Below, piece after piece: positions 37,899-64,000 of a DNA stretch of 64,000 nt (within the stretch, counting starts at the first letter, position 1; each line of letters opens with the position of its first letter). Both the position numbers and the translations under genes were made by a program. The DNA comes from Mobula hypostoma (taxonomy: Eukaryota): contig NW_026948115.1 in assembly GCF_963921235.1 (NCBI RefSeq), positions 186,001 through 250,000 on the forward strand. The letters run 5' to 3'. The notes under the pieces were generated by a model. The model did not search any database. It was given only the letters and a program-made list of their open reading frames with translations, and was not told the origin of the DNA.

Positions 37899-38159
37899 GC
37901 TCTCACTCTCTCCGTTATTTCCATACGGCGGTGACCCCGGGGTCGGGGGTCCCTGAGTTCATTACGGTCGGGTACGTGGACGAGGAGCCGATCGTTTACT
38001 ACGACAGTGAGTTGGGGAAGAAGGTGCCCCGTCAGCAGTGGATGGCCGAGAGTCAGGGAGCCGACTACTGGAAACGGGAGACACAGATCTCTCAGGGCAA
38101 CGAGCCAGTGTACAAGACCAACATCCAGACCCTCATGAGCCGGACCAACCAGACAGGGG
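37899..38159 (+). CDS. UAA: MHC class I heavy chain exon 2 (alpha1 domain)
   Basis: 261 bp, phase 1-1, ccAG acceptor and GTGAGT donor; GSHSLRYFHTAV...ADYWKRET...MSRTNQTGG with Y7, Y59, R84 and the N86 sequon. Confidence 0.97.
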
Positions 38160-38189: not shown

Positions 38190-38525
38190 GGTGACAGGAG
38201 GGACCGGGCATGGGGGGTGTAATGGGGAGCAATGGTAGGGATTGTGGGGGGGGGAGGGAGAACATTGTGACTGTGGGGATTGTGGGGGGAACGGGGTGAC
38301 TGGGGACTGTGGGGGATGGAGTGACTGGGGATTGTGTGGGAATGGGGGTAACAGGATTGTGGGGGATGGGGATAACTGGGAATTGTGGGGTTGATGGGGT
38401 AATTGGGGATTGTTGGGGATAGGTATAACCGTGGGGATCATGGGGTGATGAGGTAAATGTGTGGATTGTGGGGGGGATGGGGTAACTGTGGGAATTGTTG
38501 GGGGCTCTGGGTGACTGGGGAGTGT
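38190..38525 (+). repeat. Degenerate G-rich tandem repeat directly after the alpha1 exon
   Basis: Recurring GGGGATTGTGGGGG-ATGGGGT(G/A)ACT units. Confidence 0.7.
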
Positions 38526-39260
38526 TGATTATTGTGGAAATTTGACCTTAGTAGGCTGAAAAGAATAATCGAATCTAGTGTCTCGTTTCCGGACATTTAA
38601 TTTACTTTGGACCAAGGAGAGAGAGAGAGCTGGTCTCCACCAGCACCCGACTCTACTCTCCTGTTACAATAGTGTCCTTTTGTACAGTTCAGCATAGTAA
38701 CAGTAGACTCATTATAATATATCCAATTATTGTATAGAAATATTATCACTATAACAATATGTTACTGTTCACTACAAAACAAAACAAAGTGAAGGGAGCA
38801 GTTACAAGTTAAACTATCTTGCAGAGCTGAGCACATTAGTTCCTGTTTCTCTGGTCGCAGCAGATTAGACTCATACCTGATCTGGCGAGAGTTAGCACGG
38901 AACGTTCTCTATTTGCACACAATGCTTTTTGCTTTTTCTCCACAAATCCCTCCTTGTTGATCTTCTAGATCAACACTCACATCGTTTACCCTATTCACAT
39001 TCATATTCTGTCATTGAGTCTCTCACTCTGCTCGGCAGCTGAACGGGTGCTGTTCACTCCAGTCTGTTGTTCCTCTCCTTTCTCGTCACCGAGTGGCCTG
39101 TATCCAGTCCGGTTTCCTCCTACCTTCACTGCGTTCCGAGTGACCAACCTCTCCCGTATTTTTGGCACAGCACTCCGGTAGTGAATCCCCGCTTCTCGTT
39201 AATGGACAGCAGGAAAGGCTTCTCGTAGTCAGGTAGGCCCAGGGCTGGCATCTTTTAGGG

Positions 39261-40656
39261 TAGTGGTCACCAACCTTTTTAAGCCCAAGATCCCCTACCT
39301 CGGCCTCAGTGAAAGGCAAGATTGACCTACGAAATGGTTTAGAGAAAAAACAGCTCAGATTGTACTTCCAACTTGAGGCCCTTTATTTGGGCTAATTGTG
39401 TTTTAATTACATAAAATGTTTTTGTCAAACTTTCAAATTAATTCAACCAAGAAAACACTGTAACTAGCATATCAAACAGGCCATAGCAGCATCGAGCTCA
39501 TCCAAAAACGCCTTGAATAAGCGGTGCTGAAGTAGTTTTGCTCGAATCGTTTATCAGTTTGACCACCAGTGTCATTACATGAGAAAAGTCCACGACCTTC
39601 CCAGCCAAGGCCTGCTGATGAATCACACAGTGATAATCCAGGAAGTCGGGAGAATTGGGGTCATTACGGCACAGTGCTATAAAACCAACGCACACACTGC
39701 GCATTGCTGGGGCCCCATCAGTAGTAATTGCCACAGTTTATGAATGGGGATGCCATTTTCATGGACATTTTTTAAAAACTCATTGTAAATATCCTCACCT
39801 CTCGTTCTCTCCTTTAAGTGCAAAAGGAAGTCCTACTTTGTTGTAAAATCCTGGAAAGCCATTCTGACAAATACAACAAGCTGAGCTGTTTGCTTTACAT
39901 CCAGGGATTCATCGAACTGTCGTGAAAAATATTCACAGAGTGACAAGTCCTTTAACACTTGTCGATCCACGTCCTCTGAGCAGCATGTTTGCTGGGCCTT
40001 CAAACCCGATTTCAGCTCCTCAACCTTCCTGGTATTGGTAAACTTACTGAGACACTGGTATAAGTTTCAGGGGTACGCAGGCTAATGACACCACAGTTTT
40101 TGTTTCCCATTTCTTTTACATTTGGAGAATGTTGGAATTTAAAGGGGGAGAAGTGTTGTAATGTGAGCATTATAAAGATAAGTTAATACCAGTTAGGATC
40201 ATGGTAATATAGCAATACTCCCGCTACGGAAAGCTGTTTGTAAATTGGGATTGTTTCTGTTATGATATACTTGTACATGCACTCGTGAGCAGACGATTAA
40301 AGTTGTTAAAGGCATTAAAGGTGATTAAAGGCACGCGCCTTTGTTTTTATCTGAAATATCTGTCTCGAAACAGTTTCCGGGGTTGCAGGGATTCCCTTCC
40401 GGTCTTCTCTGCCGGGTGCGCATTCGTGAAAACCTTTGTATGCGAATATCGTTTTACCGTCCTAGATAAAGTTGTTCCTTTTGGGCATGAAGTTGTCGAG
40501 TGGTCCTTTTTCAAAGTAGAAATTACTACATATTTGCATCAAAAGATTTATCAGGCATAATGTATTTGTGCATTTATTTTTCTTTTTTTTCGGGATCTAC
40601 TGGGAAAGTTTCGAAGATTGACCGGTCGATTGCGATCGACTGGTTGGCGACCACTA
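39261..40656 (-). mobile_element. Non-autonomous hAT DNA transposon with transposase remnant
   Basis: TIRs TAGTGGTC(A/G)CCAACC, 8-bp TSD TTTTAGGG (39253-39260 and 40657-40664), and TTDGAPAM...HCVIHQQAL in ORF 39498..39734 (Charlie/Buster-type). Confidence 0.92.
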
Positions 40657-41281
40657 TTTTAGGGCTATAAATGCCCAATCCCTCTGGTCAGTCCACCACA
40701 CAGTTACTGGCTGGTCCTGCAGTGTGGCTGCCCGGAGTACAGCATCCATTTCCCTCTACTCCGGTATCCACTGTCAACAGTCCCCAGCCATTCCCAGGTA
40801 GGAAAGAATTCCCTTCTCTGTCTTTGGTATCGGGATGTGCTGGACAGCCAATTTACAGTCTTTTCCGAGCCCTCTCGTTCCCTCGGTCAGCTCGAACCCG
40901 AGACACTGCACGGTGTCCTGGCAACACTGCAACTTTTCCAGGGAAACCCGGTGTCCCCTGTCAGCCAGATGCTGTAACAGCTTAATTGTACCAGCTCGGC
41001 AGCGAGGGCCCGTGTCCGAAGCTGTCAGGGTATCGTCAGCATGTTGGATAAGGGTGGAGTGATCGGACAAGGGGCTCTCATCCAGCTCATGCTTTACGGC
41101 CGCCGCACGCACTGCTGGGCTTTCTGTGTACCCTTGAGCAATCGGGAACAAGTATACGGCTGGTTCTTGTAGGTGACAGCCAGTAGATACCGGCTGTCAG
41201 CAGGTGGAGGTGTAGAGAAAACCCCGAACATTAGTCTGTGACGGTGAAGGTACTGGCGGAGGCGATTATAGAGGTGAGGAT

Positions 41282-43160
41282 ATAGAGGTGAGGAAGCTAG
41301 CAAATAATATCAAAGAGGATACTAAAAGCTTTTTCAAGTATATAAAGAGTAAAAGACAGGTGAGAGTAGATATACGACCGATAGAAAACGATGCTGGAGA
41401 AATTGTAATGGGAGATGAGGAGATGGCAGAGGAACTGAACAAGTATTTTGCATCAGTCTTCACTGAGGAAGACAGCAGGATACCGGACACTCAAGGGTGG
41501 CAGGGAAGAGAAGTATGCGCAGTCACAATTACGACAGAGAAAGTACTCAGGAAGCTGAATAGTCTAAAGGTAGATAAATCTCCCGGACCAGATGGAATGC
41601 ACCCGCGTGTTCTGAAGGAAGTAGCTGTGGAGATTGTGGAGGCACTAGCGATGATCTTTCAAAAGTCGATAGATTCTGGCATAGTTCCGGTGGACTGGAA
41701 GATTGCAAATGTCACTCCGCTATTTGAGAAAGGGCAAGGAAGCAAAAAGGAAATTATAGACCTGTTAGCTTGACATCAGTGGTTGGGAAGTTGTTGGAGT
41801 CAATTGTCAAGGATGAGGTTACAGAGTACCTGGGGGCATATGACAAGACAGGCAGAACTCAGCATGGATTCCTTAAAGGAAAATCCTGCCTGACAAACCT
41901 ATTACAATTTTTTGAGGAAATTACCAGTAGGCTAGACAAGGGAGATGCAGTGGATGTTGTATATCTGGATTTTCAGAAGGCCTTTGACAAGGTGCCACAC
42001 ATGAGGCTACTTAACAAGATAAGAGCCCATGGAATTACAGGAAAGTTACATACGTGGATAGAGCGTTGGCTGATTGGCAGGAAACAGAGAGTGGGAATAA
42101 AGGGATCCTATTCTGGTTGGCTGCTGGTTACCAGTGGTGTTCCACAGGGGTCCGTGTTGGGGCCGCTTCTTTTTACATTGTACATCAACGATTTGGATTA
42201 TGGAATAGATGGCTTTGTGGCTAAGTTTGCTGACGATACGAAGATAGGTGGAGGGGCCGGTAGTGCTGAGGAAACGGAGAGTCTGCAGAGAGACTTGGAT
42301 AGATTTGAAGAATGGGCAGAGAAGTGGCAAATGAAGTACAATGTTGGAAAGTGTATGGTTATGCACTTCGGCAGAAAAAATAAACGGGCAGACTATTATT
42401 TAAATGGAGAAAGAATTCAAAGTTCTGAGATGCAACGGGACTTGGGAGTCCTCATACAGGATACCTTTAAAGCTAACCTCCAGGTTGAGTCGGTAGTGAA
42501 GAAGGCGAATGCAATGTTGGCAGTCATTTCTAGAGGAATAGAGTATAGGAGCAGGGATGTGATGTTGAGGCTCTATAAGGCGCTGGTGAGACCTCACTTG
42601 GAGTACTGTGGGCAGTTTTGGTCTCCTTATTTAAGAAAGGATGTGCTGATGTTGGAGAGGGTACAGAGAAGATTCACTAGAATGATTCCCGGAATGAGAG
42701 GGTTAACATATGAGGAACGTTTGTCCGCTCTTCGACTGTATTCCTTGGAGTTTAGAAGAATGAGGGGAGACCTCATAGAAACATTTCGAATGTTAAAAGG
42801 CATGGACAGAGTGGATGTGGCAAAGTTGTTTCCCATGATGGGGGAGTCTAGTACGAGAGGGCATGACTTCAGGATTGAAGGGTGCCCTTCAGAACAGAAA
42901 TGCGAAGAAATTTTTTTAGTCAGAGGGTGGTGAATCTATGGAATTTGTTGCCATGGGCAGCAGTGGAGGCCAAGTCATTGGGTGTATTTAAGGCAGAGAT
43001 TGATAGGTATCTGAGTAGCCAGGGCATCAAAGGTTATGGTGAGAAGGCAGGGGAGTGGGACTAAATAGGAGAAAATGGATCAGCTCATGATAAAATGGCG
43101 GAGCAGACTCGATGGGCCGAATGGCCTACTTCTGCTCCTTTGTCTTATGGTCTTATGGTC
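41282..43160 (+). mobile_element. CR1 LINE, 5'-truncated, inserted in ERV segment A
   Basis: RT ORF 41770..42933 with GVPQGSVLGP and FADD; (TCTTATGG)n tail; ERV sequence resumes as in the uninterrupted copy near 52770. Confidence 0.95.
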
Positions 43161-45605
43161 TTGGTATCGGGGACCAGTGGGGCAATGGGAATAACGATCT
43201 TATTTACCGCTCTTTTGGGTCCTGCAGGAATCGCCATTCGTTCTTCTTCCTGGTTTTGGAATCAGAAGGATGGGGGTGATGCAGCCCCCCTGTTACAGGA
43301 GGGACTGTGTTACAGTGCGATGCCTTCCTCTGCCTGAGCTGTCAGGCGATATTGTTTCACGCAGGGCAGGAGGGATCCCTTCTCGAGGGTCACCCGTTGT
43401 TCTGGTGTCGTGCGCACCATACCGACACGGTTCTTGTGTTGGGCCCACAGTCCCATGTTAACACCGGTGAGAGCTTTCGGGTAGAGCAGGGGCCCTGTCT
43501 GGGGCGGGCACTGTTGCTGGAATAATGCCCTTAACATCATAGGTTTTACGGTAATCCTTCCTGTCTGCCTGTCAAAGATCTCGGTGATGAGCACAGCTGC
43601 ACCAGGGATTAGAACAGAGATTGTCTGGGCTGGGTGTGAAATTTGTGACGGACGGTGCACCATAGGTCCAATGCGCTTTGGTTTAACGGGGGGTGTCGGG
43701 GTCTTATGGTAACTGTGAGGTTGTTTAGTACTACTGCTATTCCCAGCTCTTCGGGACCGAAGAACAGAAGGGTCCCGGTCCCGGTTCTCAAGGTCTCCGT
43801 GTCTCCAACACAGGGGGCTGCCTGCTGATCGTAGGTGGGATCTGCGCCCTGCCCGTACAAAGCAGTGCAGTGAAACATCTTGCTTTCCCAGCCGGTTTCC
43901 AGGAGCTATTGCAAATACTGTCCTTGCAAGTCAGAGGAATCCCCCAGGGCTGTGCATGGTTGTTGTACGAGGGGGGAATAAGGGTTGCAATCCAGTTGCC
44001 AGCAGTACGATACCGGAGTATCACAACAATCATTCACTCCTCCAGTGAGCTTTAACGTCTGCGGGAGATCCACATAAATGCCATTAGGTCGACGTACAGA
44101 TTCGCACCTAACTTACAGAGAGTCTGTCTGTCTAACAAGGGGAGGGGCTTGTCTTTAGAAATTATACAGGTATCAGTAACATCCACGTTATCTATTGTCA
44201 GCGAGGGAGGGGGTCGAAAGGGTTTCTGTCATCGGGCACAGAAGACAGAGTAGCTCCATATCAGTCAGACAAGACCCCTCACTATCTCCTGTTTTTACAC
44301 CCATCATGGGCTCTTCTCTCATCCTTCTGGATAGTCTGATGGCTGCTGCCTGCACCACCGGTTCTCCGTGGCACCCCTATTGCTGAGGCGAGGGATGAGT
44401 TAAAGGGAAAGTGGGCGACTGTCGGTCCTCTGAAGCCCGGGGAGGGGGCGGAAAGGTGGGGGGGGGGTGACAGTTCCGGGCCCACTGGCCCTTTTTCCGC
44501 AATTTCGGTATGTAGTTTGGCAATCTCGGGCCCAGTGCCACTTCTCACCACAACTACAGCATTGGTCGCTTGGGGAATCAGGGAGATTTCTTCGGAACCC
44601 GGAATTCCCTCCCCTTCCCCACCTCGTCCCTGAGGTGGGCACCCTTTGCTTTGGGAGTACTGGCCTACTGGCATTTTCCCTCTCTCGTTTGTTTTCTGAG
44701 AAAAGAGTCCCTCCCGATCCACATTGTACAAAGCCGTCATTGTCTACACCCACGTTTGATTTTACCAGTTCAGATTCTGTAATTTATATCCTTGGGTTCG
44801 CAGCGGCCACATGCAGTTCAACAAAGTTTGGATGGCCAAGGGCCCATTCCCCTCTAAGGGTGTCCCAACACTCTCTCCCCACTTCTGCTTAAACCTTGCT
44901 ACAAAATCTGGAATCATTTCACCCTTCCTCTGCGAGCACTGTGTCACCTCCCCTTTACCGCTATGTCTCCGTTCCCCCCACCCCCCCATTATAGCAGTTT
45001 TTCTCCATTCTCCAACCAGAGTGTCATTGTCTCATTACCGGGCACCGTGTCATCCTGTCCCCAGTCCCCAGGGGCGAGTATTTAGCATCTGGATCAACCA
45101 GATGTGGAAGGCGTTTGGTTTCTTTAAGGGGTCAGGCGTCTCCGTGACCATGACACGTACTTCGGTTGGGGTCCGGGGTTTTCATACAGGGACGTCACCT
45201 ATCCTGATATTTGGGGCTTGAATTGTGGGGTTTGTCCCCTCCTTTTCTTCTCTCTCTCTTTGTCCCCGTGTTCGCTGTCGAGTCCCGCGGCCTCCCGCAT
45301 CACCTGTGGTGCTGCTCACTCTGGTCTCATCTCCGGCAGCCCTCGCGCCTCCTGGAGTCGTCACGGTCCTGTCCTCGCAGAGAGGGGGCTGATGCTGTGG
45401 CCGGGGGCCTGGCTGTCTCTGCCTCTGGCCTCGCCCATAGGGGGTGGCCATCTGTGTCAATTCCTCTGTGTCCCCCTCCGGGGGATCACTCGGGGTCGAC
45501 CTGAGATACTGTCCCAGCGGCGGTTGGGAGGCTGGGGGATTATTCTTATGCGGTCCTTTATCTTTCTAAGGGGGCTCAGGGGGCCAGAGTCTCTTGGCCT
45601 CCTCC

Positions 45606-46642
45606 TCCCTACCTCGGCCTTAGTGAAAGGCAAGATCGACCTACTAAATCGTTTAGTCACACGCATGCGCACTGGGCAGAAAAGACCGAAGTGAAACCCC
45701 GCAACCTGGAAACAAGATCTCTTTACAAACAACTTTCCGTAGCGGGAGTATTGCTATATTGCCATTATCTTAATTAGTATTACTTTTTTTTTAATGCTCA
45801 CATTACAACTCCTTTAATTCAAAGTTTCATTATTTAATTTTATTTCAACGTGAAAAATAAATGAATAAAAACTGACTGTTGCACTCAGTGTGATGACTGG
45901 GGCTGAATACTTTCTGCTAGTTCCCTGAAATGTGGCTGATAACTACAGACAGCCAGTCTGAGACAGTCTGTGAGGTGTCTGTCAGTGAGACAGCTCCTGT
46001 ACTTAGATTTCATAATTTTCATCTGTGGCAGCACAGCGCCCTCGCAAACCTCCTGACAGACTGAATATTTGACTGGAGAGTTTCCTTTGTTAGACTGAAT
46101 GTTGAATCTGCCACGTGTTTCAGGTGTTTTGTGTTGGTAAACTGTTACTGAGACACTAGTGTAAGTTTCAGGATAATGACAGCACTGTTTTTTGTTTCCC
46201 AGTTATTTACATTTGGGGAGTGTTGGAATTTGAAGGGGGAGAAGTGTTGTAATGTGAACATTATAAAGATAAGTTAATACAAATTAGGATAATGGTAATA
46301 TAGCAATACTCCTGCCACGTGGCTACGGAAAGCCATTTGTAAAGAGAGGTTGCTTCCGGTTGCGGGGTTTATTTCCGGTCTTTTCTACCGCGGTGCATGG
46401 CGGGGGAGCTATACACATGCGCACTGGGCAGAAAGAACGGAACTAAAACCCCGCAACCCGGAAACAATCTCTCCTTACAAACAGCTTTCAGTAGCTCGAG
46501 TATTGCTAAATTACCACTAATCAGTATTACTTATGTTTATAATGTTCACATTACAACAGCATTTGTGCATTTATTTATTTTTCTTTTTTTTTGGGATCTA
46601 CTGGGAAGGACTCAAAGATCGACCGGTCGATGGCGACCACTA
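45606..46642. mobile_element. hAT MITE of the same family, left TIR missing
   Basis: Begins at CCCTACCTCGGCC (about 30 nt inside the left end of 39261-40656) and ends with the right TIR GGCGACCACTA. Confidence 0.8.
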
Positions 46643-47301: not shown

Positions 47302-47303
47302 TA

Positions 47304-50300
47304 GTTCTTGTTTGTAGGGCCACAGCAGATTAGACTCGTACCTTTTCTCAGAAGAGTTAGCACATATGGTTCCCTATTTGCACACGAGGGTCTTTGCTTT
47401 GTCTTCACAAGTCCATTGTTGATCATCTTCATCAACACTCATATCATTCACCCTATTCACATTCATATTCTCTCATTAAATCTATCTGTAGGAAGGGGCT
47501 TCATAACCCTCAGGAAAGAGGCACAATTTCAGACATACCTCCTCGTCATGGCTATCACTACTATCTATAAGGTGTTGTGTGGCAGAGTGGGGAGGGGGGA
47601 GGTAGTACTGTAGTGGCCGGTCTAAATATTTTTTTCTCCATGAACTTACTCCATTCTGCCTTTTATAGTCCATTCTCCGTACACCAACAGGTGTCTCCTC
47701 TCTGTCTCTATACCACCATTGGGGGGGGGGTGAGTGTGAAATGTCAGGGTAACATGGAATCCATTTAGCAGACTGGCTGGTCCCCTCAGCCCCATTCCCC
47801 GTTCCCCTGTGCCATCGCTGCCTCGCCGACAAGGTGTCCATCCTCCAGAGCTGCTGTCGGTGGTACCGCTGAGGGTAAAATTGTATCCCCACAACACAGG
47901 GCCTGCTCCTCCATCCAGTTCCTGTAAGACCTCCCCTCTATTTTTGGCGAAGGGTACAGTCACTCAGGGCATCGTCCCAGCTCCTCCAGTGTGTGTTGGT
48001 ATCACCACACAGACACAACAGCTTGTATGGGTCGTACTATTCACAGAATCATATGCCAACCGGAGGAAGGTATTCTTGCATTCAGCTCCGATTCCTCTGA
48101 TTACAATGGTTAATGGCCCAGTGATTAACAGTGAGTGGGACCCCCTGGTGGTGTGGCTCTGTTCACTCGACTCGGCAGCTGAACGGGTGCAGTTCACTCC
48201 AGTCTGTTGTTCCTCTCCTTTCTCGTCGTGCCATTTGCACCGAGTGGCCTGTATCCAGTCGGGTTTCCCCCTACCTTCACTGCGGTCCGAGTGACCCACC
48301 GGACTTGATAGGGGCCTCTCCACCTGGGAGAGAAAGATTCTCTTATCACAGCTCGAACGTGTACCCAATCCCCTGGTTTGAAGAGGTGCACATTTCCTTC
48401 GGTCAGGGGAATCTGTGTCCCTCACTTGGCCGTGTAGCTTTTCCACCTCGTGACACAGTGCTTGCGCATATTTGAGGGTTTTTCCATCGTTCCAGATCAG
48501 AGCCACTGTCTCCGGTGTCATCGGGCGACTTCGGCCCCGTTGTCACTGGTCTACCCATGAATATTTCACGTGGGGTGAACCCCGTACTCCTATTCTTCCG
48601 GTTTCGTAAAGCATACATTACCCGAGGCAAAGCCTCTGACCATTTAAGGTCATTCTGCTGACACACCCTGCCTGGTGCATTTTTTATTTCTCCGTTTACC
48701 CTTTCCAGCATTCCCGAGGATTGGGGTTGATAGGGGATGTGTAACTTCCACTGAAATCCCAGGGCGACTTTCAGCCCTTGTACTAATCTGTTAGTAAAAT
48801 GAGTTTCCCTGTCACTATTAATACACAATGGAAACCCAAACCTTGGTGATTTCCTTCATTAGGGCATTCACTACTGTGCTAGCGTCATCCTTCCTGGCCG
48901 GGAATGCCTCCATCCACCGAGAGAACATATCTATTCCCAACAATATATATTTGTGGCCTTTCTCCACTGGCAGATGCACAAAGTCTATCTGTACACTTTC
49001 AAACAGCATTTGTGGCTGGGGCCAATGATCATACTTTGCCAGAGTTTTCCCTTTATTGTTCTGTTGACATATCAAGCATGCTGGTGCTACCCTTTCGACT
49101 GTGACAGTCATCCCAGGGGTTTACCATTGCTGACTAATCACACGCTGCATCCCTGCCTTGCCCACGTGAGCCTGGCCATGGGCCAAGCAAGCCAGGGGTG
49201 GAAACAGGCTTCAGGGACAAACAACATCCCGTCAGGGTGGCAGCTTTTGTCCACGCGCACTTTTCTTGTGGGGTGGCAAGATCTTGGGGTTGTCGCGATC
49301 TGTCGGTACTGATGGCGGTGAGGAGCTCTCCCTCCCCTGTTTCCACCCGGGGGTGTGGTGGGGGGCTGTAATATCGGCCGCTGCTGGAACACCCCCTGCT
49401 TCAGTGTTGTGTCAGTGAAATGATTCCCTTTGGAGACCTCGTCTCCTGCCGAGGTCTGTGCCTCACATTTAATTATGGCTCAGGCTGCGGCAACTGGATG
49501 GCCTCTAACAGGTTAATAACTGGTTGAGAATGTTTAATAGGTTTTCCGGAGGAGGTGATGAATCCTCTGTTCTTCCAGAGCTGTCCAAAGTCATGGGTTA
49601 CTCCAAAGGTATAACGGGAATCGGTGTAAACGTTCACAGTCTGGCCTGAGGCCGGAAGGTTCTGCTGCCTGTGCAGACATTCTGTTTGGTGGGGCGTGAG
49701 CCTCTACAATCTCACGGGCAAAATGCTGTGTGGCGGTGGAATTGAGGGGCAGGGTCACGGCACGGGCTACCAACACAGCGCAGGGGTGATCAATGAATGG
49801 AGATGGATTTGTCGATGATCACCGCTGGGGCTGCCACCGCTCGGAGGTAGGAGGGCATTCCCCTCACTACAGCAGGTAGGGAGGCGGAGTAATAGGCCAC
49901 TGGTCGCTTGCCACCCCCGTATTGTTGGCACAGGACTCCAGTAGTGAATCCTCGCTTCTCAATAACGTACAGCAGGAAAGGCTTCTCAGAGTCAGGTAGG
50001 CCCAGGGCTGGCCCCTCACGAAGGGCATCGTTTGGGGCTGTAAATGCCCGATCCCTCTCATCAGTCCACCACACATTTGCGGCCGTCCGGAGTACAGCAT
50101 CCATTTCCCTCTACTCCGGTATCCACTGTCGACAGTGTTACGTTAAGTGTTTAGTCAGTTACGCAAAGCGTCCGACTTTCCCACAATTATAACAGACGAC
50201 CCCAGGAGACTTCTTACCAGACTGCTCCCGGTCTACCTTATCCTTCTCACTAGTCCCCGGCTTACTTTCTGACTTTTCCGGCGGACTCTCCCCTCCGTCC

Positions 50301-53300
50301 TGACTACCCTTCTGGTAGCCTTTACTCGGGGCAATCTTCATCTTATGCGTCAATGCATACTCATCCGCTAACTTAGCAGTTGCGGCTAACGTGGCTGCCT
50401 CTTTCTCATCGAGGTAGGGTCTCATACCCTCAGGGACACAACCTTTAAACTGCTCAATCAGGATCATCTGTAGCAGTCTGTCATAATCCCCCTCTACCCC
50501 TTTCGAGGCGCACCAACGCTCACAATATGTCTGCATCTCACAGGCAAACTCTAAATACGTGCGGTCCCACCGCTTCCTCGCATTCCGGAACCTCTGCCGG
50601 TATGCCTCCGGGACCAACTCATAAATCCTGAGGATGGCCTCCTTCACCACCTCATACTTCTGGGCATCTTCCGCGGATAAAGCTGAGTAAGCTTTTTGGG
50701 CTTTCCCTTTTAGTACACTCTGAAGCAAAACAACCCACTTATCCCTCGGCCAGTCCTGACTTATAGCCACTTTTTCGAAATGGAGGAAGTACCGATCCAT
50801 GTCGGTATCGTCAAATGGGGGGACCAGCCTAACCTTCTGGGTCGCCCGGAACCCTCCACCTTGGTTCGGCACGAGCCCCTGCTCTGTCCTTATCTTTAAC
50901 CTCTCCAGCTCGAATTCCCTTTCCCTCTGTTTCTCTTCTCACTCCAGCTGCCTTTCTCTCTCTCTCTCTCTTGCCTTTCTAACTCTCTCTGCTTCTCTTC
51001 TCTCTCCAACTGTCTGTCCCTCTCTTTCTCTTCCCGGTCCAACTGCCATACCCGGAACTCGTGCTCGAGTCTCAGTTTTTCAAGCTGTACCTGTACCGCG
51101 TCTCCAGCAGGTTTTTCAATAGACACCACCCCCAGCTCAACTTGGGGAAACACACCTTTAGATACATAGTGCTCTACAATAGCTCTGTGTATCTCCTCTC
51201 TCCTCATTGTCGACTTCACCATAGCAAGATTCAACCGTTTGGCCACAGCTGCCAATTCTGATTTCCTGGCATCCTCTAATGCCTCCAAGGTCGGCGCCTT
51301 TAGAAATTCCTCAACCTCCATTTCTGCTGTTTGTCTTTTCTTTCTTTCGGGAATTTTGACCCAATCAATTTACTCCGTCCCAAATTTAGCGTTCAAAATC
51401 GCGGACGAGAACCCCACTTATGTTACGTACCCCGTAACTGGGTTGCCAAACCAGCAGAAATGGATCACTCAGTTGGAGTCTGGATTACTAGAATTAAGAA
51501 AGTTTTTATTAAAGAAACAAGCAACACAGTACTCTAATCAAAAGGATAATGAATGCAACAGTTCCGCAATGATAAACATACATGTACACAGAATTCAGGA
51601 TCAAACAAGCTCTATCGTTGTCTAGGGGCAAATAACCAGTTTCAAAGTGACACAAAGTTCAGTTCAATTAAGTTCAGTTCGCAGTAATCGTTGCCATGGC
51701 GATGGACAGTGGGTGGGGGGAGGAAGGAGAGAGAGAGCGAAACGAATGAATATTCAACACAGCTTCCACACACCGACCTTCGCAGTCAGCTTTCGTGCGA
51801 GCCCTTTTTGTCATCTGAGGTCACTGACCGTGACCCCTCCGTTTCCAGATACGAATCGTTTCTCTGCGCTGAACCTGGTACCCAGGCAAGGGTGGACACA
51901 CACCAGGTTCCCTCCGATCGTGCCTTTCCACCCTGAGCGTCTATGGCTTGATCCCGCGATCAGCCGTCCAAAAGCTTTCCACCGACTTGTGAGAGATGCA
52001 CCGCTTCCAGGGTCTCGTTACCTCGGGTGTCGTGTGTGTCCTGCCTTAGCGAACCTGTCCCTTTTTATCCCCCTGCTGGGGTATCGCCTGTCCATCACTT
52101 CAAAGAGTTCAGGGTTCAAAGGGGGAGCCGCTCTTGACAGCTCTCCTTCCCCTTCATTACACATCTCCATTGCTGCTCCATGTCTTCCTTATCTCTCTCT
52201 CTCCTGAAGACCTGTGGCAGACCAACTGCTGATCACACAGGACAGCTAACATTGATGTGTATTTTTGTCACAACAGTCCCCAGCCATTCCCAGGTAGGAA
52301 AGAATTCCCTTCTCTGTCTTTGGTATCGGGATGTGCTGGACAGCCAATTTACAGTCTTTTCCGAGCCCTCTCGTTCCCTCGGTCGGCTCGAACCCGAGAC
52401 ACTGCACGGTGTCCTGGCAACACTGCAACTTTTCCAGGGAAACCCGGTGTCCCCTGTCAGCCAGATGCTGTAACAGCTTAATTGTACCAACTCGGCAGCG
52501 AGGGCCCGTGTCCGAAGCTGTCAGGGTATCGTCAGCATGTTGGATAAGGGTGGAGTGATCGGATAAGGGGCTCTCATCCAGCTCATGCTTTATGGCCGCC
52601 GCACACACTGCTGGGCTTTCTGTGTATCCTTGAGCAATCGGGAACAAGTGTACGGCTGGTTCTTGTAGGTGACAGCGAGTAGATACCGGCTGTCAGCAGG
52701 TGGAGGTGTAGAGAAAACCCCGAACATTAGTCTGTGATGGTGAAGGTACTGGCGGAGACGATTATAGAGGTGAGGATGATGTTGGTATTGGGGACCAGTG
52801 GGGCAATGGGAATAACGATCTTATTTATCGCTCTTTTGGGTCCTGCACGAATCGCCATTCGTTCTTCCTTCCTGGTTTTGGAATCGGAAGGATGGGGGTG
52901 ATGCAGCCCCCCTGTTACAGGAGGGACTGTGTTACAGTGCGATGCCTTCCTCTGCCTGAGCTGTCAGGCGATATTGTTTCACGCAGGGCAGGAGGGATCC
53001 CTTCTCGAGGGTCACCCGATGTTCTGGTGTCGTGCGCACCATACCGACACGGTTCTTGTGTTGGGCCCACAGTCCCATGTTAACACCGGTGAGAGCTTTC
53101 GGGTAGAGCAGGGGCCCTGGCTGGGGCGGGCACTGTTGCTGGAATAATGCCCTTAACATCATAGGTTTTACGGTAATCCTTCCTGTCTGCCTGTCAAAGA
53201 TCTCGGTGGTGAGCGTAGCTGCACCAGGGATTAGAACAGAGATTGTCTGGGCTGGGAGTGAAATTTGTGACAGACGGTGCACCATAGGTCCAATGCGCTT

Positions 53301-55224
53301 TGGTTTAGCGAGGGGGGTGTCGGGGTCTTATGGTAACTGTGAGGTTGTTTAGTACTACTGCTACTCCCAGCCCTTCGGGGCTGAAGAACAGAAGGGTCCC
53401 GGTTCTCAAGGTCTCCGTGTCTCCAACACAGGGGGCTGCCTGCTCATCGTAGGTGGGATCTGCGCCCTGCCCGTAGAAAGCAGTGCAGTGAAACATCTTG
53501 CTTTCCCGGCCGGTTTCCAGGAGCTATTGCAAATACTGTCCTTGCAAGTCAGAGGAATCCCCCAGGGCTGTGCATGGTTGTTGTACGAGGGGGGAATAAG
53601 GGTTGCAATCCAGTTGCCAGCAGTACGATACCAGAGTATCACAACAAGCATTCACTCCTCCAGTGAGCTTTAACGTCTGCGGGAGATCCACATAAATGCC
53701 ATTAGGTCGACGTACAGATTCGCACCTAACTTACAGAGAGTCTGTCTGTCTAACAAGGGGAGGGGCTTGTCTTTAGAAATTATACAGGTATCAGTAACAT
53801 CCACATTATCTATTGTCAGCGAGGGAGGGGTCGAAAGGGTTTCTGTCATCGGGCACAGAAGACAGAGTAGCTCCATATCAGTCAGACAAGACCCCTCACT
53901 ATCTCCTGTTTTTACAACCATCATGGGCTCTTCTCTCATCCTTCTGGATAGTCTGATAGCTGCTGCCTGCACCACCGGTTCTCCGTGGCACCCCTATTGC
54001 TGAGGCGAGGGATGAGTTAAAGGGAAAGTGGGCGACTGTCGGTCCTCTGAAGCCCGGGGAGGGGGCGGAAAGGTGGGGGCGGGGTGACAGTTCCGGGCCC
54101 ACTGGCCCTTTTTCCGCAATTTCGGTATGTAGTTTGGCAATCTCGGGCCCAGTGCCACTTCTCACCACAACTACAGCATTGGTCGCTTTGGGGAATCAGG
54201 GAGATTTCTTCAGAACCCCGAATTCCCTCCCCTTCCCCACCTCGTCCCTGAGGTGGGCACCCTTTGCTTTGGGAGTACTGGCCTACTGGCATTAAACCCT
54301 CTCTCGTTTGTTTCCTGAGAAAAGAGTCCCTCCCGATCCACATTGTACAAAGCCGTCATTGTCTACACCCACGTTTGATTTTACCAGTTCAGATTCTGTA
54401 ATTTATATCCTTGGGCTCGCAGCGGCCACATGCAGTTCAACAAAGTCTGGATGACCAAGGGCCCATTCCCCTCTAAGGGTGTCCCAACACTCTCTCCCCA
54501 CTTCTGCTTAAACCTTGCTACGAAATCTGGAATCATTTCACCCTTCCTCTGCGAGCACCGTGTCACCTCCCCTTTACCGCTATGTCTCCGTTCCCCCCAC
54601 CCCCCCATTATAGCAGTTTTTCTCCATTCTCCAACCAGAGTGTCATTGTCTCATTACCAGACACCGTGTCATCCTGTCCCCAGTCCCCAGGGGCGAGTAT
54701 TTAGCATCTGGATCAACCAGATGTGGAAGGCGTTTGGTTTCTTTAAGGGGTCAGGCGTCTCCGTGACCATGACACGTACTTCGGTTGGAGTCCGGGGTTT
54801 TCATACAGGGACGTCACCTATCCTGATATTTGGGGCCTGAATTGTGGGGTTTGTCCCCTCCTTTTCATCTCTCTCTCTTTGTCCCCGTGTTCGCTGTCGA
54901 GTCCCGCGGCCTCCCGCATCACCTGTGGTGCTGCTCACTTCGGTCTCATCTCCGGCAGCCCTCGCACCTCCTGGAGTCGTCACGGTCCTGTCCTCGCAGA
55001 GAGGGGGCTGATGCTGTGGCCGGGGGCCTGGCTGTCTCTGCCTCTGGCCTCACCCATAGTGGGTGGCCATCTGTGTTAATTCCTCTGTGTCCCCCTCCGG
55101 GGGATCACTCGGGGTCGATCTGAGATACTGTCCCAGCGGCGGTTGGGAGGCCGGGGGATTATTCTTATGCGGTCCTTTATCTTTCCAAGGGGGCTTAGGG
55201 GGCCAGAGTCTCTTGGCTACATCC
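47304..55224 (-). mobile_element. ERV segment B (defective; partial gag, pro, RT, RNase H, IN, partial env; no LTRs found)
   Basis: Gag MHR-like SQRKGEMIPDFVARF and CCHC knuckle; protease tail LLDRQTLCKLGA; RT QGYTESP and QHADD; RNase H VNVYTDS; IN QIDFVHL, HIPYQPQSSGMLER and WRGPYQV; env-like TSCCVCVVIP. Confidence 0.9.
50136..52272 (-). mobile_element. Second Gmr1-like Gypsy copy (5' LTR, PBS, gag; pol and most of the 3' LTR deleted), inserted in ERV RT
   Basis: LTR 51421-52272 is homologous to 4386-5245; gag ORFs 50896..51321 and 50159..50872; ACAG TSD (50132-50135 and 52273-52276), confirmed by the empty site at about 40815-40825. Confidence 0.92.
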
Positions 55225-55533
55225 TCCCTACCTCGGCCTTAGTGAAAGGCAAGATCGACCTTCTAAATTGTTTAGTCACACGCATGCGCACTGGGCAGAA
55301 AAGACCGGAAGTAAAACCCCGTAACCTGGAAACAACATCTCTTTACAAACAGCTTTCCGTAGCGGGAGTATTGCTATACTACCATTATCCTAATTAGTGT
55401 CACTTATTTTTATAATGCTCACATTACAACACTTTGAATTCTATGTTTCATTATTTAATTTTATTTCAACACGAAAAATAAATGAATAAAAATTGACTGT
55501 TGCACTCAGTGTGATGACTGGGGCCGAATACTT
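55225..55533. mobile_element. hAT left-subterminal piece (same ERV-hAT junction as 45606)
   Basis: Near-identical to 45606-45910. Confidence 0.8.
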
Positions 55534-58500: not shown

Positions 58501-59079
58501 CCGCCAGAGAAAGCAGGATCTCCCAGTGGCCACACATTTTAATTCCACATCCCATTCCCATTCTGACATGTCTATCCACGGCCTCCTCTACTGTAAATAT
58601 GAAGCCACACTCAGGTTGGAGGATCAACACCTTATATTCTGTCTGGGTAGCCTCCAACCTGATGGCATGAACATTGACTTCTCTAACTTCCGCTAAAGCC
58701 CCACCTCCCCCTCGTACCCCATCAGTATTTATTTATATACACACATTCTTTCTCTCTCTCTTTTTCTCCCTCTGACTATACCCTTGCTCATCGTCTGGGT
58801 TTCCCCCCCACCCCTTGTCTTTCTCCCCGGACCTCCTGTCCCATGATCCTCTCGTATCCCCTTTACCAATCACCTGTCCAGCTCTCGGCTCCATCCCTCC
58901 CTCTCCTGTCTTCTCCTATCATTTTGTATCTCCCCCTCCCCCTCCCACTTTCAAATCTCTTACTCACTCTTCCTTCAGTTAGTCCTGACGAAGGGTCTCG
59001 GCCTGAAACGTCGACTGTACCTCTGCCTAGAGATGCTGCCTGGCCTGCTGCGTTCACCAGCAACTTTGATGTGTGTTGC
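55534..59079 (+). mobile_element. Near full-length Penelope-like element (RT plus GIY-YIG), inactivated
   Basis: ORF 56334..58373 with KPADKGG, FYLLPKIHK..GRPIVS, GVAMGTRMGPSYA and RYIYD (catalytic YIDD altered); frameshifted GIY-YIG at 58380-58690; 3' hammerhead motif. Confidence 0.92.
58981..59016 (+). ncRNA. Minimal type I hammerhead ribozyme motif
   Basis: AGTC-CTGACGA-AGGGTCTCGGCCT-GAAAC-GTC-GACT: helix I AGTC/GACT, intact core, palindromic ACGT helix III, predicted cleavage after C59012. Such ribozymes are known from Penelope termini. Confidence 0.75.
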
Positions 59080-59565
59080 TTTATACTATTGGCTAGTCTG
59101 CCCTCATATTTCATCTTTTCCCTTCTTATTGTTATTTTTAGTTGCTTTTTGTTGGATTTTAAAAGCTTCCCAATCACTTTTGCTACCTTATTTGCCCTCT
59201 CCTTGGCTTTATACAGTCCTTAACTTCCTTTGTCAAACACAGTTGCCTATCCCTGCCATTTGAGAACTTCTTCCTCTGTGGGACATATCCATTCTGTGCC
59301 TTGTGAACTATCCCCAGAAACTTCAGCCACCTCTGCTCTGCCATCATCGCCACCCGTATCCTTCTCCAACCCACCCGGGCAAGCTCCTCTCTCATGTCTT
59401 TGTAACTCCTGTTATTCCATTGTGATACTGATACATGTGATTTATGCTTCTCCCTCTCAAATTGCAGTATGAATTCAATCATATTATGATCACTGCCTCC
59501 TAAAGGTTCCTTTACGTTAAGGTCCCTAATAAGATCTGGGTTATTACACAACACACAATCTAAGT
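59080..59565 (-). mobile_element. CR1 fragment (end of endonuclease domain)
   Basis: NPDLIRDLNVKEPLGGSDHNMIEF in ORF 59183..59554. Confidence 0.8.
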
Positions 59566-59573
59566 TACCCTTT

Positions 59574-59888
59574 CCGCAACGCGGCTACGGAAAGCCGTTT
59601 GTAAAGAGAGGTTGCTTCCGGTTGAGGTGTTTTTACTTCCGGCCTTTTCTACCGCGGTGCATAGCGGAGGAGCTACAGACATACGCACTGGGCAGAAAGA
59701 ACGGAACTAAAACCCCACAACCCGGAAACAATCTCTCTTTACAAACAGCTTTCCGTAGCTGGAGTATTGCTAAATTACCATGATGCTGATCAGTGTTACT
59801 TGTGTTTATAATGTTCACATTGCAACAGTATTTGTGCAGTTATTTATGTTTCATTTATTTCGGGATTTACTGGGAAAGTCTGAAAGAT
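59574..59888. mobile_element. hAT right-subterminal piece, TIR lost
   Basis: Homologous to 46310-46620; joins ERV sequence at a shared AGATC. Confidence 0.8.
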
Positions 59889-61210
59889 CTGGGGCTTGTC
59901 GCGATCTGTCGGTACTGATGGCGATGAGGAGCTCTCCCTGCCCTGTTTCCACCCGGGGGTGGTGGGTGGGTGGGGGTCTGTAATATCGGCCGCTGCTGGA
60001 ACCCCCCCCGCTTCGCTGTTGCGTCAGTGAAATGATTCCCTTTGGAGAGCTCGTCTCCTGCCGAACATTTAACTGTGGCTCAGGCTGCGGTGTCTGGGGG
60101 GGCCGGTGACGGGTGAGTAACCGGTTGGGAATGTTTGCTCGGTTTCCGGAGGGGCTGATGAACCCCCTGTCCCTCCGGAGCCGCTCCACGGGTGTAAGCG
60201 TCCTCAGTCTGGCCCGAGGCCGGACGGTTCTGCTGCCGGTGCCGACGCTCCGTTTGGCGGGGCGTCAGCCTCTGCAATCTGACGGGCGAAGTGCCGTGTG
60301 GCGGCGGAACGGAGGGGCAGGGTCACGGCACCGGGTACCGACACCGGGATACCGACACCGGGTACCGACACGGCCCGGGGGTACCGACACCGGGTACGGA
60401 CACGGCCCGGGGGTACCGACACGGCCCGGCGGTACCGACACCGGGTACGGACACGGCCCGGGGGTACCGACACGGCCCGGCGGTACCGACACCGGGTACG
60501 GACACGGCCCGGGGGTACCGACACGGCCCGGCGGTACCGGCACCGGGTACGGACACGGCCCGGCGGTACCGACACCGGGTACGGACACGGCCCGGGGGTA
60601 CCGACACGGCCCGGCGGTGCCGGCACCGGGTACGGACACGGCCCGGGGGTACCGACACCGGGTACCGACACGGCCCGGGGGTACCGACACCGGGTACGGA
60701 CACGGCCCGGCGGTACCGACACCGGGTACGGACACGGCCCGGGGGTACCGACACCGGGTACGGACACGGCCCGGGGGTACCGACACGGCCCGGCGGTACC
60801 GACACCGGGTACGGACACGGCCCGGGGGTACGGACACGGCCCGGGGGTACGGACACGGCCCGGCGGTACCGACACCGGGTACGGACACGGCCCGGGGATA
60901 CCGACACCGGGTACCGACACGGCCCGGGGGTGATCAGTGAACGGGGCTGTCACCGCTCGGAGGGAGGAGGCCATTCCCCTCACTACGGCAGGTAGGGAGG
61001 CCGCTGGTCGGTTGCCAGCCCCGGATTGTCGGCGCAGGACCCCGGGAGTGAATCCTCGCTTCTCGGTAACGTACAGCGGGAAAGGCGCCTCACAGGCAGG
61101 TAGGCCCAAGGCCGCCCGTCACGAAGGGCATCGTTTGGGGCTGTAAATGCCCGATGCCCCTGGTCGGCCCACCGCCCAGTTACCGGCTGGTCCTGCAGGG
61201 TGGCGGCGGA
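59889..61210 (-). mobile_element. ERV segment C (RNase H and RT connection region)
   Basis: Collinear with 49280-50060, with a tandem expansion at 60330-60930 and marked GC enrichment. Confidence 0.85.
60330..60930 (+). repeat. CpG-rich minisatellite of interspersed 13- and 19-bp variants
   Basis: GGGTAC(C/G)GACACC and GGTACCGACACGGCCCGG(G/C) units. Confidence 0.95.
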
Positions 61211-61320
61211 GGTTACAGGGGTGGCGGGGTCACGGTGCGGGTTATCGGGCTGTGATTGTCACTTCAGCCGCATTTGACAGATATGGATCTCCCCCCCCCC
61301 CCCCCGCCCGGTTGTTTCAG

Positions 61321-61593
61321 GGATCCACACTTTCCAGCGGATGTACGGCTGTGAGATCCGTGAGGACGGGACCACCACCGGGTTCATTCAGTACGCCTGG
61401 GACGGGTCAGACTTCATCAGCTTCGACAAGGAGAACATGGTGTGGGTGACCCCTGTGCCCTGGGGTCAGATCACCAAGAACAAGTGGGACCGGGACACGG
61501 CCGAGAAGCAGCAGAGAAAGGGATACCTGGAGCAGATCTGCACCGAATGGCTGACGAAATACGTCAAGGCCGGGAACGGTCACCTGAAACCCA
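61321..61593 (+). CDS. UAA: MHC class I heavy chain exon 3 (alpha2 domain)
   Basis: 273 bp, phase 1-1, tttcAG acceptor and GTGAGT donor; GIHTFQRMYGCEI...DFISF...ITKNKWD...GYLEQICTEWLTKY with C101/C164, F123, T143, K146, W147, Y159 and Y171. Confidence 0.97.
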
Positions 61594-61624
61594 GTGAGTG
61601 GGGGGGATGTGTGTCTGAGAGTGA

Positions 61625-64000
61625 CCCTCCCTCCGTCTCCTCACTCCACCCTCCCCTCCGTCTCCTCACTCCACCCTCCCCTCCGTCTCCTCACTCCACC
61701 CTCCCCTCCGTCTCCTCACTCCACCCTCCCCTCCGTCTCCTCTCCCCACCCTCCCCTCCGTCTCCTCACCCCACCCTCCCCTCCGTCTCCTCACTCCACC
61801 CTCCCCTCCGTCTCCTCTCCCCACCCTCCCCTCCGTCTCCTCACTCCACCCTCCCCTCCGTCTCCTCACTCCACCCTCCCCTCCGTCTCCTCACTCCACC
61901 CTCCCCTCCGTCTCCTCTCCCCCCTCCCCTCCGTCTCCTCACTCCACCCTCCCCTCCGTCTCCTCTCCCCCCTCCCCTCCGTCTCCTCACTCCACCCTCC
62001 CTCCGTCTCCTCACTCCACCCTCCCCTCCGTCTCCTCACTCCACCCTCCCCTCCGTCTCCTCACTCCACCCTCCCCTCCGTCTCCTCTCCCCACCCTCCC
62101 CTCCGTCTCCTCACCCCACCCTCCCCTCCGTCTCCTCACTCCACCCTCCCCTCCGTCTCCTCTCCCCACCCTCCCCTCCGTCTCCTCACTCCACCCTCCC
62201 CTCCGTCTCCTCACTCCACCCTCCCCTCCGTCTCCTCACTCCACCCTCCCCTCCGTCTCCTCTCCCCCCTCCCCTCCGTCTCCTCACTCCACCCTCCCCT
62301 CCGTCTCCTCTCCCCAACCTCCCCTCCGTCTCCTCACTCCACCCTCCCCTCCGTCTCCTCACTCCACCCTCCCTCCGTCTCCTCACTCCACCCTCCCCTC
62401 CGTCTCCTCACTCCACCCTCCCCTCCGTCTCCTCACTCCACCCTCCCCTCCGTCTCCTCACTCCACCCTCCCTCCGTCTCCTCACTCCACCCTCCCCTCC
62501 GTCTCCTCACTCCACCCTCCCTCCGTCTCCTCACTCCACCCTCCCCTCCGTCTCCTCACTCCACCCTCCCCTCCGTCTCCTCACTCCACCCTCCCCTCCG
62601 TCTCCTCACTCCACCCTCCCCTCCGTCTCCTCACTCCACCCCTCCGTCTCCTCACTCCACCCTCCCCTCCGTCTCCTCACTCCACCCTCCCCTCCGTCTC
62701 CTCTCTCCACCCTCCCCTCCGTCTCCTCACTCCACCCTCCCCTCCGTCTCCTCACTCCACCCTCCCTCCGTCTCCTCACTCCACCCTCCCCTCCGTCTCC
62801 TCACTCCACCCTCCCCTCCGTCTCCTCACTCCACCCTCCCCTCCGTCTCCTCACTCCACCCTCCCTCCGTCTCCTCACTCCACCCTCCCCTCCGTCTCCT
62901 CACTCCACCCTCCCTCCGTCTCCTCACTCCACCCTCCCCTCCGTCTCCTCACTCCACCCTCCCCTCCGTCTCCTCACTCCACCCTCCCCTCCGTCTCCTC
63001 TCCCCAACCTCCCCTCCGTCTCCTCACTCCACCCTCCCCTCCGTCTCCTCACTCCACCCTCCCTCCGTCTCCTCACTCCACCCTCCCCTCCGTCTCCTCA
63101 CTCCACCCTCCCCTCCGTCTCCTCACTCCACCCTCCCCTCCGTCTCCTCACTCCACCCTCCCTCCGTCTCCTCACTCCACCCTCCCCTCCGTCTCCTCAC
63201 TCCACCCTCCCTCCGTCTCCTCACTCCACCCTCCCCTCCGTCTCCTCACTCCACCCTCCCCTCCGTCTCCTCACTCCACCCTCCCCTCCGTCTCCTCACT
63301 CCACCCTCCCCTCCGTCTCCTCACTCCACCCCTCCGTCTCCTCACTCCACCCTCCCCTCCGTCTCCTCACTCCACCCTCCCCTCCGTCTCCTCTCTCCAC
63401 CCTCCCCTCCGTCTCCTCACTCCACCCTCCCCTCCGTCTCCTCACTCCACCCTCCCTCCGTCTCCTCACTCCACCCTCCCCTCCGTCTCCTCACTCCACC
63501 CTCCCCTCCGTCTCCTCACTCCACCCTCCCCTCCGTCTCCTCACTCCACCCTCCCTCCGTCTCCTCACTCCACCCTCCCCTCCGTCTCCTCACTCCACCC
63601 TCCCTCCGTCTCCTCACTCCACCCTCCCCTCCGTCTCCTCACTCCACCCTCCCCTCCGTCTCCTCACTCCACCCTCCCCTCCGTCTCCTCACTCCATCCT
63701 CCCCTCCGTCTCCTCACTCCACCCTCCCCTCCGTCTCCTCACTCCACCCTCCCTCCGTCTCCTCACTCCACCCTCCCCTCCGTCTCCTCTCCCCCCTCCC
63801 CTCCGTCTCCTCACTCCACCCCTCCGTCTCCTCACTCCACCCTCCCCTCCGTCTCCTCACTCCACCCTCCCCTCCGTCTCCTCTCTCCACCCTCCCCTCC
63901 GTCTCCTCTCTCCACCCTCCCCTCCGTCTCCTCACTCCACCCTCCCTCCGTCTCCTCACTCCACCCTCCCCTCCGTCTCCTCACTCCACCCTCCCCTCCG
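61625..64000 (+). repeat. C-rich minisatellite, 25-bp unit (with shorter variants), over 2.3 kb, running off the window
   Basis: GTCTCCTCACTCCACCCTCCCCTCC repeated about 95 times, starting about 30 bp after the alpha2 donor. Confidence 0.97.

Follow-up and report, generated by a model that had tools for sequence, protein, structure and literature searches.

The window analysed here, a 64-kb stretch of DNA corresponding to positions 186001-250000 of a 322-kb contig (C15) in a 3.48-Gb genome, carries a plus-strand MHC class I gene whose alpha1 and alpha2 exons lie inside the window and whose alpha3 exon lies beyond its end (Table 1). The alpha1-alpha2 intron (intron 2) measures 23 kb, and intron 3, of about 10.9 kb, is made up nearly entirely of a 25-bp pyrimidine-rich minisatellite. 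Flanking the class I gene on the same contig are an ABC_membrane exon, ~50 kb upstream, and an ABC_tran exon, ~65 kb downstream, which by our own reading would be exons of TAP. Translation of alpha1 and alpha2 reveals equivalents of Y7, Y59, R84, T143, K146, W147, Y159 and Y171, all present, which we take, in both list and numbering, to be the conserved peptide-anchoring residues of class I molecules. Based on the TAP-like linkage, the anchoring residues and a layout like that described for elasmobranch classical class I and antigen-processing genes (PMC10751288), we read the gene as a putative classical class Ia gene. Sequence resemblance suggests that the animal is a cartilaginous fish. Six related alpha2 exons, with 64-75% amino-acid identity, are clustered on contig C12; since the TAP-like exon is single-copy, the C15 locus is probably not a mere duplicate of that cluster. 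Just upstream of the TAP-like first exon lies a purine-rich, partly masked repeat tract (window 7222-14710), and a 790-bp duplication (11172-11961 versus 13925-14710, 98%) is also found upstream of that exon. The intron 3 array has a C-rich 25-bp unit, G-rich on the opposite strand; it is 94% matched near alpha2 and visibly degenerates towards alpha3 over its roughly 10.8 kb.

Intron 2 houses one minus-strand ERV, broken and present three times in tandem as units A (38527-45912), B (47302-55228) and C (59884-61207). Between the LTRs, the Pfam-identified pol domains follow the minus-strand order RT, tether, RNase H and integrase; no Pfam match was found for the gag/pro region in the six frames tried, and the top PDB matches for the unit B integrase are retroviral integrases, foamy-virus structures first, with scores too low to assign a retroviral class. 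Dispersed copies of the ERV carry LTR pairs 9-10 kb apart. The DNA transposon within unit A (~39260-40657) has 15-bp inverted ends and an 8-bp target duplication, and unit B is broken by stops and frameshifts and by a Gypsy-like insert (50137-52270) with a Pfam SCAN match. Unit C is joined on its left to a DNA-transposon fragment through a shared word of 6-7 bases, a junction that we read as a probable 2.7-kb deletion from a B-like unit, and is cut off on the right by a deletion, beyond which the native end of the intron follows. Pieces of the same ERV also occupy the 17-kb intron 2 of a class I paralogue on C12, and the insertion thus most likely predates the split of the window gene and this sister paralogue. 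The latter (C12 31985240-32002727) has an alpha2 interrupted by a stop, matches the window gene over 1.9 kb around alpha1 (84%) and holds its ERV pieces in another arrangement, which makes it a usable outgroup for the window gene.

Table 1. Features of the class I gene and its intron repeats, in window coordinates.
Feature	Position	Strand	Evidence or remarks
MHC class I alpha1 exon	37899..38159	+	Pfam MHC_I E=1.9e-23; splice sites read; presumed RNA contigs join 3' end to alpha2
LTR of ERV unit A	38527..39024	-	44 genome matches, some paired 9-10 kb apart; 370-770 bp downstream of alpha1
ERV unit A, deleted, interrupted by DNA transposon and LINE	39023..45912	-	Self-alignment, sequence
ERV unit B: integrase, RNase H, tether and RT remnants	47302..55228	-	Pfam rve, RNase_H, RT_RNaseH_2, RVT_1
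DNA-transposon fragment	59576..59889	.	Homologous to 46314-46620, 88% identity
ERV unit C, cold left end	59884..60000	-	0/35 A/T columns changed
ERV unit C, RNase H region, GC-drifted	60001..60318	-	32/126 A/T columns privately G/C, 1 reverse
GC-rich minisatellite within unit C (617 bp; 13/19/32/51-bp units)	60315..60931	.	TRF
ERV unit C, tether region, GC-drifted	60932..61207	-	15/85 A/T columns changed, 2 reverse
MHC class I alpha2 exon, polymorphic, spliced	61321..61593	+	Pfam MHC_I E=8.8e-26; allelic contigs, splice junctions, codons
25-bp pyrimidine-rich minisatellite filling intron 3	61624..64000	.	TRF; ~8.4 kb more past window, ~10.8 kb total

Some further traits of the intron stand apart from unit C. 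Units A and B (38837-45912 versus 47302-55533) are 79-90% identical at their left ends and 97-98% identical over the right 3.3 kb, a step which suggests that the tandem units may later have been homogenised or have undergone unequal exchange. Between B and C, a young-looking reverse-transcriptase element (55534-59080), presumably Penelope-like, sits inside a transposon and retains a 747-aa open frame with a weak RVT_1 match. The native intron 2 (38234-38525 and 61210-61260) appears to be a 27-bp G-rich repeat split by the ERV, and its remnant beside alpha2 looks GC-richer than the part beside alpha1 in an unreliable alignment.

An earlier note on this DNA had reported a one-way excess of G/C in unit C relative to unit B next to alpha2. 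With A/T denoted W, G/C denoted S and all ratios given as W-to-S : S-to-W, its central count was reproduced exactly: the ungapped comparison of 49641-49750 with 60209-60318 (110 bp) yields 17 differences, 15 of them W in B and S in C, two G-C swaps and none in reverse, although we find seven rather than eight non-CpG sites among the 15, the other eight being possible CpG decay in B. The bias extends beyond this segment, with B versus C ratios of 46:3 to the left of the internal minisatellite (449 columns) and 26:2 to its right (261 columns); once CpG transitions are set aside, 30:3 and 14:2 remain. In the overlap of all three units it is likewise C that carries the GC-ward change, as previously described (A versus C 13:4 and 11:0, A versus B 3:5), including 12 C-only W-to-S changes among 112 polarisable columns. 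Balanced controls are provided by A versus B (27:31 over 2751 columns), by the transposon fragment adjoining C on the left (13:11, 307 columns) and by a Gypsy-like pair that we count as balanced (57:74 over 2016 columns). The sister ERV copies do serve as neutral controls.

For polarisation we turned to the dispersed copies of the ERV, of which 11, recovered in two genome searches with 32 and 16 matches, were long enough to act as outgroups; left out from the 32 were two in-window copies, one second match of the same copy and 20 distant matches of ~85-150 bases. Columns within two bases of a gap were excluded, and the CpG-filter analysis further omitted one near-duplicate and one distant copy (nine outgroups). 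The nine main dispersed copies are star-like, with 82-87% mutual identity and one near-duplicate pair at 94%, as would be expected for one insertion burst followed by independent decay, so that polarity is clear. Identity to ten of these eleven copies is 0.72-0.79 for unit C and 0.79-0.86 for unit B. In the 552 columns of a first alignment, 26 derived changes are common to B and C, which makes the two units sisters; C alone shows 43 W-to-S, 3 S-to-W, 11 S-to-S and 1 W-to-W changes, and B alone 0, 8, 3 and 0, respectively. A second alignment gives 47 W-to-S changes in 246 A/T columns versus 3 S-to-W in 278 G/C columns on C, and 0 versus 10 on B, eight of the latter at CpG (Fisher p=4e-9, C versus B).

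This asymmetry is robust to filtering. With no CpG in any copy the C-only count is still 29:3 (p=3e-6), corresponding to a GC* of 0.89 versus a background of 0.36; unanimous outgroups give 32:2, or 20:2 when CpG sites are removed as well; omission of the 110 bp counted previously leaves 39:3; and a looser alignment with gap-edge columns retained yields 57:9. The earlier note had itself named two ways in which the pattern might dissolve, namely that C is ancestral and A and B decayed, or that the bias vanishes over the full alignment without CpG sites; both fail, as the dispersed copies side with B and the 29:3 excess persists, which also rules out CpG decay in B as the cause. All four W-to-S types are represented on C (A>G 19, T>C 16, T>G 8, A>C 4), on both strands and as transitions and transversions, a spectrum that rules out strand-specific editing, which would yield either A>G or G>A exclusively. 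They occur regardless of CpG creation (17/81 columns where a CpG is possible versus 30/165 elsewhere), and W-to-W changes are not raised (1/246). In runs of 100 consecutive A/T columns C has 21-36 W-to-S changes, whereas the nine dispersed copies, A and B peak at 7-13, and C's total of 25% (64/258) is six times the 4.2% background accumulated over the whole family age. Shared CpGs are kept at 18/25 sites in C, 12/25 in B and 117/176 observations in the dispersed copies, and the interval 60001-61620 has 68% GC and a CpG o/e of 0.97 (63% and 0.78 without the minisatellite). Unit C is a derived, accelerated copy.

The drifted zone has a sharp left edge near 60000, beyond which, in keeping with the weak effect previously described near 59900, 0/35 A/T columns are changed (59884-60000), and it peaks at 60100-60200 (17/47 columns). 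The further claim of a strengthening towards the exon is not upheld as a gradient. Past 60050 the rate shows no distance trend (Spearman rho -0.11, p=0.12), and 30/104 A/T columns are changed left of the minisatellite versus 15/85 right of it (Fisher p=0.087). Given the cold left end and the flat profile beyond it, the reported gradient is in fact an edge. Between this cold end and unbiased neighbours the drift is confined to 1-2 kb, with a right edge made unreadable by the exon and minisatellite that follow. Near alpha1, the LTR of unit A displays ordinary AT-ward decay (3 W-to-S versus 10 S-to-W A-only changes in 347 columns), so that no drift beside alpha1 is seen either there or in the paralogue's ERV piece near alpha1 (4:12). 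Drift is likewise absent from the LTR of the C12 sister paralogue, 1.5-1.9 kb from its alpha2 (5:4), which lies farther from alpha2 than C does and in a gene that carries a stop; this LTR is GC-richer than that of A (pairwise 23:9, p=0.02), mostly through decay in A once polarised. The exon and intron end show no bias against the sister paralogue in an unpolarised count (25:19). The B/C common branch leans towards GC (18:6), as do A and B overall (GC* 0.58-0.59 versus 0.30-0.56 for the dispersed copies), so that C's peak stands on a raised regional background and the signal is partly regional. On C12 (31.85-31.99 Mb, loci L032-L037) paralogous alpha2 exons also occur in GC-rich flanks (0.55-0.64), and at L034 a GC peak is centred on alpha2 and falls to 0.40-0.47 within 1.5 kb.

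The GC3 of the alpha2 exon (0.83), proposed earlier as a distinguishing measure, is matched by that of other exons (alpha1 0.78, alpha3 0.82, the TAP-like exon 0.79, the six paralogous alpha2 exons 0.77-0.86) and thus does not discriminate. Synonymous third positions of alpha2 lean to G/C against five of the six paralogues (3:0, 6:0, 4:0, 2:0 and 3:0) and to the opposite side against the sixth (1:3), in comparisons that are not independent of each other.

The earlier note had passed over three further features of C: an excess of G-C swaps, deletions private to this unit, and a minisatellite that arose from the unit's own sequence. S-to-S changes number 11/278 on C versus two B-only (p=0.02), or 10/184 without CpG versus a whole-age background of 1.1%, with a strand lean of 9 C>G to 2 G>C (p=0.065). 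This is a departure from pure GC-biased gene conversion (gBGC), which alone does not predict such changes. Four C-only deletions (12, ~32, 28 and 12 bases), not found in the dispersed copies, fall together with the minisatellite within ~750 bp. The repeat unit of the latter matches B 49755-49790 and carries G/C at the drifted sites, indicating that drift began before the expansion. Taken together, these features suggest that break-associated mutagenesis as well as gBGC may have acted on C. C>G changes are a putative mark of break repair, a link for which the literature searched, including PMC13399160, gave no confirmation.

Contigs assembled from 4 of 11 listed runs (four samples, two studies) cover positions 60935-61622. 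The right-hand part of C, 60935-61148, shows no difference from the window in 4/4 runs among the differences listed, at a low intronic depth (5-37) and in contigs that drop variants and would leave haplotypes without C unseen. The earlier statement that the alpha2 exon is polymorphic is borne out at the protein level by differing alpha2 contigs: among the differences listed, two contigs of run X2, of about equal depth, disagree with each other at alpha2 codons 22, 58 and 61, and each departs from the window at further alpha2 codons, while some alpha2 variants in runs X1 and X6 come from paralogues. Loose contig ends show splicing of alpha1 to alpha2 and of alpha2 to alpha3, and the class I gene thus appears both polymorphic and expressed, on the presumption that the runs are RNA, as which none is recorded. 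Several allelic alpha2 states coincide with states of the C12 paralogues, which would fit interlocus conversion and also recurrent selection, and a polymorphic exon beside an invariant flank would fit frequent exchange between them. The spliced alpha1 ends in other samples (loose ends at 61321) differ from the window's; in X2 the first half of this end is like paralogue L069 and the second half like the window, possibly as a mosaic allele.

We consider gBGC at a putative long-lived or recurrent recombination zone the best explanation of C's drift, and a likely one. The hotspot reading of the earlier note is supported in part: C is a derived, accelerated copy with gBGC as its probable cause, recombination at the site and a tie of the zone to the exon rather than to the two adjacent minisatellites are conjectural, and the gradient towards the exon falls. 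In the proposed scenario, the ERV would have inserted into a class I intron 2 before the split from the C12 sister paralogue and then been triplicated in tandem, with deletions that left C abutting alpha2, as is directly visible in the window. Since the B/C split, C alone would have lain in a zone, at least 1.2 kb long, of meiotic breaks repaired repeatedly from the homologue, where heteroduplex mismatch repair in favour of G/C would fix W-to-S mutations and eliminate the reverse ones. Change has reached about one-fifth of the A/T sites in C, which exceeds the genome background by a factor of at least 4-6, and a speed-up of this size would require the zone to be long-lived or recurrent, and strong. 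The drift may in turn have built the CpG-rich 68%-GC island, which perhaps now itself attracts breaks, and the extra G-C swaps, deletions and minisatellite could be by-products of frequent break repair. If only a third to half of the family age, that since the B/C split, is counted, branch counts give an estimated speed-up of ~9-14-fold; the conversion strength B obtained from the ratio (~2.7-3.4; 2.7 by hand arithmetic) predicts only a 3-4-fold W-to-S speed-up, below that observed, a shortfall suggestive of bouts of far more intense drive or of additional mutation. Raised W-to-S together with lowered S-to-W change is the stated signature of gBGC in PMC11161765, which also describes GC* as needing many substitutions and as unsuited to a single locus. 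Four of five testable features of the gBGC footprint are present here, the exception being that GC-conservative (S-to-S) changes are raised. A search for SSXRD, as a sign of PRDM9, gave 0 matches, but also 0 in control genomes.

C's drift and its extra changes could also reflect a local bias of mutation rather than of fixation, in which single-stranded DNA damage or error-prone repair at breaks, stalled forks or the pyrimidine-rich repeat would generate G/C, C>G changes and deletions. The ~5-fold rise in S-to-S changes with its 9:2 strand lean, the cluster of four private deletions and a minisatellite in ~750 bp, the W-to-S speed-up beyond that implied by the ratio and the precedent of gerbil high-GC regions, where all categories are raised (PMC7403616), speak for such a bias; we nevertheless hold it to be unlikely in view of the unraised W-to-W changes (1/246), the S-to-W count below that of B (3 versus 10), the rise of all four W-to-S types on both strands, and the report that break-repair mutations are AT-biased and outweighed by gBGC over time (PMC5698624). 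Selection could alternatively have fashioned a GC- or CpG-rich regulatory element, an intronic enhancer or CpG island, from the ERV fragment beside alpha2, and the 68% GC and 0.97 CpG o/e of 60001-61620, the retention of 18/25 shared CpGs versus 12 in B and the lack of variation at 60935-61148 in four samples would all be in line with it. It seems to us quite improbable, however: changes are no commoner where a CpG could form (17/81 versus 30/165), it is hard to believe that one element received ~47 separate selected substitutions and yet tolerated deletions and the growth of a repeat, and gBGC itself creates CpG islands (PMC4350167).

The exon, the CpG-rich island or the neighbouring minisatellites could each fix where the zone lies. 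As a variant of the best explanation that concerns position only, the hot zone may be real but placed by repeats, C's minisatellite or the 10.8-kb intron 3 array, rather than by the MHC exon or its polymorphism. Drift on both sides of the internal minisatellite, with a peak 115-215 bases away and no rise towards the exon, agrees with this placement, as do the enrichment of poly-purine/pyrimidine tracts at hotspots and a minisatellite-associated hotspot cited in the same work (PMC1543642); the minisatellite unit had, however, already drifted when it expanded, and paralogous alpha2 exons lie in GC-rich flanks, with the L034 peak centred on the exon, which leaves repeat-set positioning a possibility that we would entertain but not favour. 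We attach next to no weight to the idea that C represents an older state or a GC-rich subfamily with A and B decayed, or an assembly artefact. B did lose CpGs, and 9-10 of the B/C differences are B-only S-to-W changes, but at 47 W/S sites the dispersed copies have the state of B, the 26 derived changes common to B and C mark them as sisters, a genome search with C's drifted core returns a single match, C itself, and 60935-61148 is identical in contigs of 4/4 runs from two studies. The polarity, the CpG filters, the C-core search and the other samples together show that the bias is not CpG decay, a subfamily or an assembly error.

The human hotspot MS32 has reportedly been mapped by sperm typing. 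It is cited as minisatellite-associated (PMC1543642) and shares with the present locus a GC-rich minisatellite within a few hundred bases of the inferred hot zone, whereas here the repeat visibly grew from the drifted ERV and the zone is deduced from sequence. Like the gBGC peaks at PRDM9-independent hypomethylated hotspots of dog and other mammals (PMC11161765, PMC4350167), the locus shows a kb-scale excess of W-to-S over S-to-W once CpG is masked, with a GC* close to 0.9 and a CpG island as product; in contrast to these, our case is a single non-mammalian locus, away from a promoter and polarised by paralogous repeats instead of outgroup species. The runaway GC regions of gerbils (PMC7403616) resemble it in their very high W-to-S rate and raised GC-conservative changes, but are megabase-scale with all categories raised, as opposed to ~1.2 kb with only S-to-S raised besides. 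In teleosts, alpha1 and alpha2 of classical class I genes are shuffled by recombination within a long intron 2 (PMC6523485), and the window gene likewise combines a classical-type class I gene with a long, 23-kb alpha1-alpha2 intron and inferred recombination inside it, although the teleost evidence is domain shuffling among alleles and ours is base composition. In birds, shifts of GC3 in exon 3 (alpha2) of MHC class I have been tentatively tied to biased conversion (PMC3685324), a parallel to the high alpha2 GC3 and suggested gene conversion here; that work had neither a neutral flank nor a polarised control, whereas in our case it is the flank, not GC3, that singles out alpha2.

The literature searched, which included few subscription papers and no supplements, contained no study describing gBGC or a recombination hotspot for an MHC intron of a cartilaginous fish, nor any fine-scale recombination work in this lineage. 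The mechanism is textbook knowledge; the instance is new, unusually clean and internally controlled, as same-age controls from the same intron remove the usual doubts on polarity and CpG decay. We tentatively raise the further possibility, which we do not regard as probable, that a very strong meiotic break and conversion site has lain at the edge of alpha2 through much of the time since the ERV arose, being mutagenic (C>G changes, deletions, minisatellite birth), keeping the flank uniform and feeding the exon short tracts from alleles and C12 paralogues. If true, the ERV would serve as a dated recorder of the machinery of MHC diversity in an early-branching jawed vertebrate. The likely recombination or conversion zone is narrowed to ~1 kb beside the peptide-binding exon and offers a precise target for work on how MHC diversity arises, with the warning that GC-ward drive may inflate estimates of substitution and selection in alpha2.
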